A stretch of DNA of 64,000 bases from Lingula anatina (lineage: Eukaryota; Animalia; Brachiopoda), in contig CM120647.1 of assembly GCA_051362555.1 (NCBI GenBank), forward strand, positions 12,252,651-12,316,650. Reading direction: 5' to 3'. This document shows positions 22,355 to 57,619 of the stretch, in pieces; position 1 is the first letter of the stretch; each line of letters begins with the position of its first letter. Below the pieces are notes generated by a model. It was not told the origin of the DNA, made no database searches, and worked only from the letters and a program-made list of their open reading frames with translations. The position numbers and the translations under genes are program-made.

Positions 22355-25300
22355 ATGACTCTACGAATGATGATAAAAGGTTGGTACAGTTTGACTACAA
22401 TTCCTGACGTACATATTTTGCACATGTAATAGGAAACTAATGAACTTTGTTCAATTTTATTATGAATGATCGATAGATGATATCTGTTACAGCATGTAGG
22501 TTTTTCTTCTGTGATTACTCGTTGGAGTCGAACATTTATTCCTAAAATTGCAGAAAAATCCATCCGTTTAGAGGCCTTACTACTGCTTGTGTGGGCTGCC
22601 CGTTTGAAACCCGTAACAGGTACGTCAAGAGCCATACCAATATTCGAACGTTTATTTACAACCGTAAGAGATATTTTTAAAAACATGCATAGTTAAATTT
22701 CCCGACATCAAATAAGTGAGTCTATAAATCTGCACCCTAAGCAGTGGCGGGTTTAAGGGGGGTGATTTCTAAAAAAAATCACAACTATTCTACCTACTTG
22801 AAATTAGAATTTCGAATCAAAGTTCTAAACCGTATCAAATGACACTGTTCGCCCTGAAGCTCAGGGTGAGATCTGTAGTGTTAGTTCACAAAAATGGAAC
22901 ATAGCTGATCATTGATTTAGACAGAATGTGAACTGTTGCTTAAAGACGCACATATTTGTGTAAAACTGTATTTTCAACTTTGGTTATGATAGAAATAACA
23001 GTTCATTGCCACCTAGTAATTTTTTAAGTTACTTTCCCGGACATTTGCTAGGTATACAGAATAGACAACTGATTAGAAACGTGTTTTCGTATCTTGTTCA
23101 TATATCAATACATTAAAGGGATAATAACTCTTCGTTTCGGCCAAAAAATGAATTTTCCTGGGGTAAACAACAATTTTCCCATACTCACCAATGATTAATG
23201 AATCCATTTTTACATTCAAAGTTAGTCCCTGTTTTTTTTTCTAAAAAGTTTGTTTTTTTGTCAAAATCTCTTAAGAGATTCTCTTAAGATCCTCTTAAGC
23301 GATTTTAACAGAGTATAGCCATCAATGGAGGTCACGTGGTCAAAAGACAAGCTCAGATATCAGAATAATAGATATAACTGCTGTTTTTGTGATAAAACAG
23401 AATATATAATATTTCTACGAGTTATTCACAATGTTTTTATTGTGAAATATAGATCTCATGCGAAGAGTTATTATCCCTTTAACGCAGAATTTCACGTTTA
23501 AGTTATTAGTTATAAAGCACCGATATTTTAAGCAACTGTCTTGAAGGTACACTACATGGGTTTGAAAATACCTCAAAAGTTCATTAATTAATAAATTAAT
23601 TAAGTAATAAATTAATTTATTTATCTATCTATTTATTAATTAATTTATTTATTTTTGCCATCCACAGCTTCTTATAAATGTCACTTTAAACTACACCAGC
23701 ATTTATAAATTGAATTAAAGGTTGAACGTAAGTGCAAAGAGCTATATACTGTATATACAGGGAGATATATATATATATACAACATTGGCCAAAAAGATTG
23801 TCTCAACCCCGTTTCCATAAACTTTTATTTACAAATGATCACCTCACAGCTGTAAATTGTTAGAAATAGTGCTTTTTATTACAGATACCGTGTCTAACAT
23901 GATTAATGGTTTAATGCTCGTTAAAGGTCGCGTGCCTAACAGCGTGTGCGTCTACCGCATACTGCAATTATCTCCTGTAGACGGCGAGACAAGCCTTCAA
24001 CAGGGGTAACAATTCTGTTTTGTGGGATATTGTCCCATTCTTCTTAAACAAGTTGGGGGAGTTGGTCCACGTTTTTATGGGGTTGGTTCTCCTTTGCATT
24101 GCACATTGACCAATGTTGTATATGATTTGCGAGTACTAAAAAATTGCTTATTTCCTCGGGAAAAGTCATGTTGGCGGGTAATTCCAATTGCCCTTTAAGG
24201 CCGCATTCACAACAGCGGACTAACTAGTTAGCAGATCAAAAATGGCCGACCCACTTGAATGCTTTTTGCGTAGTCCCCGCGAAGAATGTATTCAGTGTCT
24301 ATTACGGAGTAAGACGACAAGGTTTTAAGTGAGTCGCCATATTTGACCTGCGGACTACTCAGTCTGCTGTTCTGAATGCGGCATATAAATTTTGTGATCT
24401 TCAACTTGACGCAGGTCAATTGGCCGTGCGATTGGTTAACGGACGAACGTGCAGGGGGCGAGTGGAGGTACAACCACCCGGAGGCGCCTGGGGCACCGTT
24501 TGTGATGATTTCTGGGATGTCGACGACGCTATCGTAGTGTGCAGAATGCTGGGCTGGCCGTAAGTAAACAATGGGGGACCTAGGGGATGACACGACAATA
24601 CCCCCCCCCCCCCAACACACTCACAGCATGAAAACGTCGTATACATCAAAAGGAGTCAAGTAATCTTTCCCACCCCTGCCAGGGGCAGATCCAGGATGAA
24701 GGGGAGGGGGGGTCCGGAACTACTGGCCTCGAATGGAAAGCCGACCTTTGGTGTGGGGTTCGGGACCTGCTCAATTTTTAGGAAACCCCTCTAAATCCGC
24801 CACTGGCTGTGCCTGACATGATATCATATATTAACCTGTCTGCCTTTTATGTTTGCAGACGGAATGGAAATGAAGTAGTTCATTAGGGTGCCTTCCCAAT
24901 GTAACTTTTGTACTGTACTAAGTAGTTCGAAGTAACTCCGTGGGGGTCTCTCTCTCTCTCTTTGAATGCAATCAGATTAACAGCTGGTGATGAAATGAGG
25001 ACGTTGGTAACAGGAGGAAGGGGTTGTGTCAGCGTGGACAGGTTTGGCAAGAACTTCTTGTACATTGTAGAACTTATTTAAAAAAAGCAGTCTACGTAAA
25101 TGTGGTGGCATCTTAATTGTTGCGCCCTTTTTTGGTCTCTTGGCGATTCATTATCTTTATTAAGCCGGGCCACTGTTGGAGTGGCGAATATACCCTTGTC
25201 TGGATGGCACTGCAGACCCTTAACGTCTGTGTATTTAAAACTATTCCCGAGTGTCCATCACGCTGGTACCTCTAGTAAGCACATGTCGTCTAGAGAAGCT

Positions 25301-57619: not shown

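Follow-up and report, generated by a model that had tools for sequence, protein, structure and literature searches.

A tandem pair of SRCR-collagen genes in Lingula anatina, predicted to encode type I membrane proteins on a (GPP-GTG)n stalk

Examination of a 64,000-nucleotide stretch of Lingula anatina DNA (assembly GCA_051362555.1, contig CM120647.1, positions 12,252,651 to 12,316,650; hereafter the window) revealed two closely related genes on the forward strand, gene 1 at 22355-30251 and gene 2 at 42716-57619, with six exons each (Table 1) and predicted products of 613 and 615 amino acids (aa) that are 88% identical. All introns of both genes are GT-AG, with phases 1,1,2,1,1, and no internal stop interrupts the frames. 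The predicted protein runs from a signal peptide through an SRCR domain, a Gly-X-Y stalk, a Lys-rich collagen segment, a Thr/Ser-rich stalk and a neck to a transmembrane (TM) helix and a 22-aa basic tail. On comparison of the copies, these SRCR-collagen genes are tandem duplicates. An initial annotation of this DNA had announced two intact six-exon genes, and both the outer coordinates and the open frames were borne out at the DNA level; intact here means open reading frames (ORFs) and does not imply expression. The Lys-rich collagen, Thr-rich stalk, neck, TM helix and basic tail of about 20 aa that it described can likewise all be read in exons 5 and 6.

Table 1. Exons of the two SRCR-collagen genes, and the neighbouring gene, in window coordinates
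Feature	Position	Strand	Basis or remark
Gene 1 exon 1: start codon and first 8 aa of signal peptide	22355..22379	+	predicted; 24/25 bases match copy 2 though intron 1 is 13% divergent; exon 2 without in-frame Met
Gene 1 exon 2: signal peptide core (hydrophobic), cleavage predicted at V-T-G/Q	22554..22619	+	alternative open acceptors 22500, 22572
Gene 1 exon 3: N-terminal half of SRCR	24415..24559	+	PF00530 E 1.4e-11
Gene 1 exon 4: C-terminal half of SRCR, then directly about 300 aa of (GPP-GTG)n	27826..28898	+	PF00530 E 1.4e-10; PF01391 E 8.9e-8; triplet analysis
Gene 1 exon 5: 60 aa of Lys-rich collagen, then Thr/Ser-rich stalk	29462..29812	+	PF01391 E 9.1e-7; dN/dS 0.04 in Lys-rich part
Gene 1 exon 6: short neck, TM helix and 22-aa basic tail with S-T-V end, then stop	30070..30251	+	
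Gene 2 exon 1	42716..42740	+	predicted
Gene 2 exon 2: signal peptide	42900..42965	+	alternative open acceptors 42855, 42918
Gene 2 exon 3: N-terminal half of SRCR	47787..47931	+	PF00530 E 3.5e-13
Gene 2 exon 4: C-terminal half of SRCR and (GPP-GTG)n	55150..56222	+	PF00530 E 4.3e-10; PF01391 E 1.4e-9
Gene 2 exon 5: Lys-rich collagen and stalk	56787..57143	+	PF01391 E 5.8e-7; three-copy model, interface residues 1-59
Gene 2 exon 6: neck, TM helix and basic tail with S-T-I end, then stop	57438..57619	+	
CAND1/TIP120 gene: 3' exons and untranslated region (UTR)	15813-17800		left part of window; PF08623 E 3e-20

Both halves of the SRCR domain score above the Pfam cut-off of 26.1 bits (45 and 42 bits in exons 3 and 4 of gene 1, 50 and 40 in gene 2), and Collagen is found in exons 4 and 5 at 29-38 bits (cut-off 27.2). 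Because SRCR and collagen both sit within exon 4, their order is free of any splice assumption. In a Kyte-Doolittle scan the sole 19-residue segment at TM hydrophobicity falls in exon 6 (2.2 and 2.3 in the two copies), the N-terminal segment reaching 1.3 and 1.8. An SRCR head preceding its stalk, with a single C-terminal TM helix, is the type I order that had been proposed from the start.

At the 5' end we infer the placement of exon 1 and of the exon-2 acceptor. Each copy has three open acceptors for exon 2. Homology between the copies and the best pyrimidine tract speak for the pair 22554/42900, which gives a 31-aa N-terminus with a short hydrophobic core and a V-T-G/Q site. Since this site fits the usual -3/-1 rule for signal peptide cleavage, the N-terminus reads as a signal that would be cleaved. 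The longer acceptors 22500 and 42855 were dropped, being non-homologous between copies and each producing a stop in the other copy. No pyrimidine-rich AG outranks the acceptor used for exon 6, whose phase fits and whose counterpart in the other copy is homologous; the joining of exons in this pair is a prediction from the DNA. Read-through of the exon-5 donor would meet a stop within about 30 codons in gene 1 (29813-29901) and about 10 codons in gene 2 (57144-57170), and such a product would be TM-less and secreted.

The stalk is unusual in composition. About 100 Gly-X-Y triplets had been claimed, and 108 were counted in runs of at least two, spread over 360 residues. In register, GPP occurs 26-29 times and GTG 23-24 times per copy, GPP making up 27% of the triplets. 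Glycine occupies 25% of Y positions; all 312 other collagen-rich proteins stay below that (median 1.2%, with P0002, a protein described below, highest at 19%). The 9-13 interruptions are mainly single replacements of the first-position glycine, at about ten places, with the register kept; gene 2 holds it without a break through 104 triplets, and in gene 1 compensating indels bring it back. The repeat is low in charge and holds 55-57 Ser/Thr in 296 residues. By this composition the stalk is a distinctive interrupted (GPP-GTG)n, with an ordinary collagen look limited to the last 60, Lys-rich residues. The collagen assignment made initially stands for those residues and for the above-cut-off Pfam matches, whereas for the rest of the stalk a triple helix is at most predicted. 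A triple helix rises 0.29 nm per residue, and 360 fully helical residues would be about 100 nm long.

A three-copy structure model of exon 5 scored 0.46 against 0.00 for the best control, with at least 70% agreement of contacts between runs, a predicted local distance difference test (pLDDT) score of 55-57, staggered contacts and an interface at residues 1-59. This type of mark, calibrated on two copies, is reached by 17 of 29 eukaryotic solved pairs, by one of seven without an older solved relative and by none of 30 single chains; the trimer model probably reflects memory of, or likeness to, solved collagens. The trimer modelling suggested with the initial annotation covers the Lys-rich part, for which it makes a trimer no more than a candidate, and is silent on the (GPP-GTG)n. 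A single-chain AlphaFold model of 132 repeat residues was uninformative (pLDDT 44).

Between the copies, 48 of 418 synonymous and 59 of 1139 non-synonymous sites differ, which gives a ratio of non-synonymous to synonymous rates (dN/dS) of 0.43 (Fisher p 4e-5) with 94 poorly alignable repeat codons left out, and 0.37 with these included. The Lys-rich collagen is the best conserved part (dN/dS 0.04), the SRCR standing at 0.53 and the alignable (GPP-GTG)n part at 0.52. Constraint is non-significant in exon 6 by itself (p 0.14), and p is 9e-4 for exons 5 and 6 jointly. Where the copies align, between mid exon 4 and the 3' flank, the sole interior exonic indel measures 6 base pairs (bp), and 9 of 11 non-coding indels are frame-breaking; another gap, of 1 bp at the edge of the alignment, is an artefact of offset. 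By these measures the six-exon frames are under purifying selection. Intron 4 (28899-29461 and 56223-56786) differs by 3.7% between copies, against 10-17% at synonymous sites and 9-13% in the other introns, which suggests gene conversion or a conserved element.

The SRCR domain shows the cysteine spacing of its superfamily, with the six group-A cysteines plus Cys43 and Cys136, and no cysteine lies beyond residue 136. The two extra cysteines could form a disulphide with one another, or link separate chains. D61, D62, D101, D/E102, N/D124 and E129 of the window proteins match by spacing all six residues that make up the dual cation site of DMBT1 (40/23/5, against 39/23/5 in DMBT1 SRCR8), and the heads are likely cation-binding; the DMBT1 residues and numbering are taken from PMC7043408. 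The extra N-terminal cysteine recalls, by description and unaligned, the sponge 'group C' SRCR, where such a cysteine lacks its group-B partner (PMC10855680).

The 22-aa tail holds eight basic residues, with a basic cluster following the TM helix. Neither tail contains a Y-x-x-hydrophobic, NPxY or acidic dileucine motif, and they end in S-T-V (gene 1) and S-T-I (gene 2), which we take to be a class I PDZ-type end. A tail without uptake motif and with a PDZ-type end favours tethering over MARCO-like scavenging.

Relatives of the stalk were sought among proteins. Searches with exon 4 covered subjects of 196-625 aa (48 matches) and 626-2000 aa (best 120 of 210), and a repeat-only search against 1.84 billion representatives provided the best 150 of 7530; about 8000 candidates were scored per protein search, ordinary collagens crowd the results, and blanks are weak. 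A custom SRCR profile applied to the 198 proteins of the 196-625 aa and repeat searches found five with an SRCR, all in class A order, and PF00530 was absent from the best 120 of 210 matches at 626-2000 aa. Exon 6 had no match at E 10, and the ESM Atlas gave scores of 0.81 or less only. The protein searches also gave two proteins, both unannotated, that combine the repeat with a TM helix at the C-terminus: P0004, a partial protein of the annelid Owenia fusiformis (CAH1790264.1) and the sole named relative, and P0002, made of signal, repeat, stalk and TM helix with no head. A C-terminal hydrophobic segment of this kind occurs in 4 of the 312 collagen-rich matches, these two included.

A degenerate DNA search of metagenome contigs with two repeat units gave 40 loci, sorted by us into 14 intron-less ORFs, 12 exon-like stretches with splice-site borders and 14 incidental bacterial or phage matches, which were dropped. 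All 14 intron-less ORFs (42-154 triplets, at a threshold of at least 40; about seven sequence groups) end in a TM helix and a tail of 18-33 aa. The search selected the repeat, for which shared composition is circular, and not the TM helix, present in 14 of 14 ORFs against 4 of the 312 collagen-rich protein matches. The contigs of these ORFs carry one such ORF each with UTR-size flanks, two end in A-runs, and they look like transcript assemblies. Ten ORFs of the family were compared with the protein collection, and none has an identical entry there.

The heads on this chassis vary. L014 (110-2692) combines a signal, a C-type lectin (CEL-I, E 7e-7), a 154-triplet repeat, a TM helix and a tail, a layout that mirrors, in type I form, that of the class A receptor CL-P1/SCARA4. 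The head of L008 and L017 is Cys-rich and CBM14-like (E 2e-4, just below the Pfam cut-off), with no solved relative found for that of L008, and L001, L018/L025, L023 and P0002 are headless. Many members bear a CBM14-like module next to the membrane on its outer side (Pfam E 2e-6 for L038, below cut-off in the others). In the genomic locus L005 (1413-4950) CBM14-like modules flank the repeat on both sides, and head, repeat, CBM14-like module and TM helix each have their own exons with phase-1 introns between; the modules of the window pair are likewise bounded by phase-1 introns. Homology outside the repeat links P0004, the L008 group, L038 and L005 (E 1e-35 to 2e-10), and L018 and L023 weakly.

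The unannotated type I (GPP-GTG)n set comprises P0004, P0002, L001, L003/L035, L008/L011/L017/L031, L014/L030, L018/L025, L023/L037, L038 and the genomic L005. With the window pair its members share a signal where the 5' end is present, the repeat composition, often a Lys-rich proximal end, a C-terminal TM helix, a short basic tail and phase-1 boundaries; they differ in bearing a C-type lectin, a CBM14-like head or none, and in several a CBM14-like module separates the collagen from the TM helix. The window pair, with its exons joined as predicted, has the signal, (GPP-GTG)n stalk, C-terminal TM helix and short basic tail of this chassis. The initial annotation had placed the novelty in an SRCR receptor family. 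That unit proved too narrow, as the stalk and its C-terminal anchor recur with other heads or none, while SRCR was found on none of the 40 repeat loci and, on this chassis, in the window pair only. The repeat pattern also gave seven loci in prokaryote genomes, six with at most 9 triplets and one (L047) exon-like, with 71 triplets; the contig of L047 has low coverage and sits in a bacterial bin, and L047 is likely animal contamination. Five loci on viral contigs belong to other repeat types, the chassis being absent in the parts read. Phage-like fibre proteins at L034 (1744-3063) and L049 have a long GPP/GT-rich collagen of similar wording, with no TM helix in the part read.

A comparable polarity is known from bacteria, where streptococcal Scl1 and Scl2 carry an N-terminal globular head, a collagen stalk and a C-terminal cell-wall anchor, without SRCR or hydroxyproline; this lollipop arrangement is an analogy only. 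The class A scavenger receptors (SR-AI/MSR1, MARCO, SCARA5), top matches of the exon 4 search, share with the window pair a membrane-distal SRCR on a collagen stalk, a single TM helix, a short tail, Lys-rich collagen and the cation site. Class A receptors have their SRCR or CTLD at the C-terminus (PMC5119243); the window proteins contain Collagen (PF01391), and neither type II topology nor a C-terminal SRCR or CTLD. All five matches run TM-collagen-SRCR, whereas the pair is reversed, with a C-terminal tail. Moreover, class A collagen is charged and regular (glycine at 1-2% of Y positions), in contrast to the (GPP-GTG)n stalk, which is without a long coiled coil, and the SRCR of the pair has its two extra cysteines. 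Acropora digitifera SRA-like1 and 2 also combine membrane collagen and SRCR in an invertebrate, but in class A order with a C-terminal SRCR (SIG PEP-TM-collagen-(...)-CUB-SRCR; PMC5119243, supplement sheet SR-A). The MACIT collagens XIII, XXIII and XXV resemble the pair as single-pass membrane collagens with an interrupted helix and invertebrate occurrence; they are type II, with a juxtamembrane coiled coil, a furin site and a conserved C-terminal motif, and without SRCR (PMC4678570). The window proteins have no N-terminal TM helix, furin site or Cys-bearing C-terminal motif, their only ectodomain R-x-x-R sitting inside the SRCR. Topology, domain order and the missing furin site and C-terminal motif confirm that the pair belongs to neither group, as had been argued at first.

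Lingula collagens with shuffled domains include lineage-specific domain-collagen fusions in tandem arrays (Luo et al. 2015, PMC4595640), alike to the window pair in fusion and arrangement; the group described there is an EGF-collagen shell matrix protein, and SRCR never occurs in the main text as available. Supplementary Table 30 of the same paper counts five Lingula proteins with SRCR and collagen, as a number with no order, topology or sequence. Invertebrate SRCR-collagen fusions are mentioned generally in PMC7308585, crustacean class A-like sets in PMC5437397, and domain compositions of 1747 SRCR genes are given in the supplement of PMC10855680. The available parts of PMC6321704, PMC13425148, PMC11312191 and PMC4678570 describe no type I form. 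Neither a signal-SRCR-collagen-TM protein nor a (GPP-GTG)n family was found in the literature searched, in which subscription papers are thinly covered and the 1747-gene list could hold one; a search on the repeat motif gave Walker-A motifs among the matches listed. The architecture, which the initial annotation did not recognise, is apparently absent from that literature.

Within an undescribed family of type I (GPP-GTG)n membrane collagens, the pair is likely the variant with an SRCR head, not an inverted MARCO. We give about an even chance to the view that these tandem genes encode type I membrane proteins whose trimeric collagen stalk would hold three SRCR heads up to about 100 nm out, for the likely capture or tethering of anionic surfaces. 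An action of this kind at an epithelial surface, which we hold with middling confidence, seems to us likelier than a MARCO analogue in phagocytosis, given the missing uptake motifs of the tail and a chassis that often bears chitin-binding-like modules or no head. Of the pattern-recognition or adhesion family suggested initially, the type I order and the head-on-a-stalk geometry are retained, whereas 'inverted MARCO' scavenging is disfavoured by the tail. More tentatively, we propose a spiralian class of type I transmembrane collagens in which a triple-helical (GPP-GTG)n stalk would be nucleated from the C-terminal anchor, and in which SRCR, C-type lectin and chitin-binding heads would have been swapped by phase-1 exon shuffling; the MARCO/CL-P1 design would then have been independently invented with opposite polarity, on a helix tolerating glycine in a quarter of Y positions.

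The mechanism that we envisage is drawn from anatomy. Once the signal is cleaved, three chains would meet in the membrane, and the conserved membrane-proximal Lys-rich collagen would nucleate a helix that zips outward, the (GPP-GTG)n part forming a kinked, marginally stable helix. Three cation-binding SRCR heads would gain avidity for anionic surfaces beyond the glycocalyx, possibly extracellular matrix, mucus or microbes, while the basic PDZ-ended tail would anchor the protein to the cortex instead of serving endocytosis. The architecture may have originated when phase-1 exon shuffling put an SRCR onto an existing type I (GPP-GTG)n chassis.

Several observations weigh against this interpretation. 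Eight of nine same-species RNA runs were examined (X6 left out). In X1, X2, X4 and X7 the exons of the neighbouring CAND1 gene, which served as expression control, have a depth of 2-25 with joints read (15984-16273 and 16416-16972). In the same runs gene 1 has a depth of 0 to 0.18 over 28008-30075 (exons 4-5) and of at most 0.5 at exons 1-3 and 6, and none of its joints is among the 15 listed of 54. For gene 2, X3, X5, X8 and X9 gave 26 reads over exons 4-6, a stretch without control gene, with a depth of zero in exons 5 and 6; 21 of these reads are below 90% identity and 25 are partial. The partial reads hold the same repeat in other wording, so that other loci with the repeat are transcribed in the species. 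The RNA check across exons that had been proposed consequently gave no joints and left the genes essentially uncovered, an outcome that neither supports nor refutes the splicing. As to the stalk, a triple helix would lose stability through the 9-13 interruptions and the filling of 25% of Y positions with glycine. Outside the repeat, the C-terminal region of the window pair matches no other member significantly (best E 0.2); the family link rests on a low-complexity repeat, layout and intron phase, and may therefore reflect convergence. PDZ-type ends would also be common by chance, and they do not appear in most other members of the repeat family.

The near absence of the pair from eight bulk RNA runs would fit the restricted or inducible expression of a functional MARCO analogue, a haemocyte or epithelial receptor whose SRCR and Lys-rich collagen bind bacteria for uptake and which is induced on challenge. 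The acidic cation site and an R-G-R stretch of the MARCO-like matches are retained in the SRCR, the Lys-rich collagen is the most conserved part, every head on the chassis is a pattern-binding fold and the gene is tandemly duplicated. We nevertheless regard such a role as rather unlikely, given a tail without uptake or signalling motif, an SRCR without sign of positive selection (dN/dS 0.53), and headless members or a membrane-proximal chitin-binding-like module that suit a structural tether. Compatible with either function is a stalk in which trimerisation is confined to the last 60 Lys-rich residues and the (GPP-GTG)n serves as a spacer, flexible or in polyproline-II form and perhaps O-glycosylated, leaving three floppy SRCR tethers. 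This would account for a Y-position glycine content above that of all 312 collagenous matches, the replaced first-position glycines, the low charge and the abundant Ser/Thr, but not for a register unbroken over 104 triplets in gene 2 and restored in gene 1, nor for the purifying selection in the alignable part (dN/dS 0.52). In addition, 27% of its triplets are GPP, the most stabilising type once hydroxylated. We consider the spacer unlikely, though a serious candidate.

The scarcity of reads could also point to silent or decaying duplicates, or to a mainly secreted SRCR-collagen arising by exon-5 donor read-through, the TM exon lying outside the main product. Although read-through stops within about 10-30 codons in both copies and a dN/dS near 0.5 denotes weak constraint, both frames are open over six exons with indels that keep them, and the read-through tails differ in length between copies. 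With a strong, in-phase exon-6 acceptor homologous in both copies and relatives that carry stalk and TM helix in one ORF, this explanation seems to us improbable. Membrane-anchored capture or tethering is the reading that we prefer.

The window, animal DNA at about 37% GC, contains transposon remnants and a large tandem duplication, in which blocks at 22110-37213 recur at 42482-63470. A haplotype-duplication artefact was judged unlikely, as intron 1 and the 3' flank diverge by 10-13% and introns 2 and 3 carry different transposon insertions. Upstream of each gene lie 3-5 diverged tandem copies of a unit of about 630 bp (20103-22204 and 39986-42576), the last of which enters the 5' region, and these could be duplicated promoter or non-coding first-exon units. 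A 29-bp minisatellite at the start of each duplicated unit (18624-19134, 37534-37664, 38429-38560 and 40766-41016) may mark the duplication boundary. The gene block was duplicated together with broken remnants of a Gypsy-like protease and reverse transcriptase (35684-37213 and 62120-63470). Gene 2 carries Tc1/mariner-like transposase remnants in intron 2 (43782-44945, PF01498 E 3e-7, and 45634-46266), and its intron 3 holds a small element whose inverted ends are 65 bp long (49915-50409). A short interspersed repeat in gene 1 intron 2 (23112-23482) reaches an RNA depth of about 1700 with reads from other loci.

Collagen XVII, EDA and gliomedin are type II proteins. The same topology is described for animal membrane collagens and collagenous scavenger receptors in the available parts of PMC4678570 and PMC5119243. 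Against this background the window holds a real, well-formed gene pair whose architecture is apparently undescribed. If the type I family is true, a head-on-collagen-stalk receptor evolved twice with opposite polarity, and the family would be a natural test of triple-helix nucleation by a C-terminal membrane anchor. Its (GPP-GTG)n, which lies outside the composition of 312 collagenous proteins, would probe the sequence limits of the triple helix, and several members are short and intron-less, which makes direct expression feasible. The swappable SRCR, lectin and chitin-binding-like heads point to an unstudied toolkit for surface recognition or cuticle tethering in marine invertebrates.

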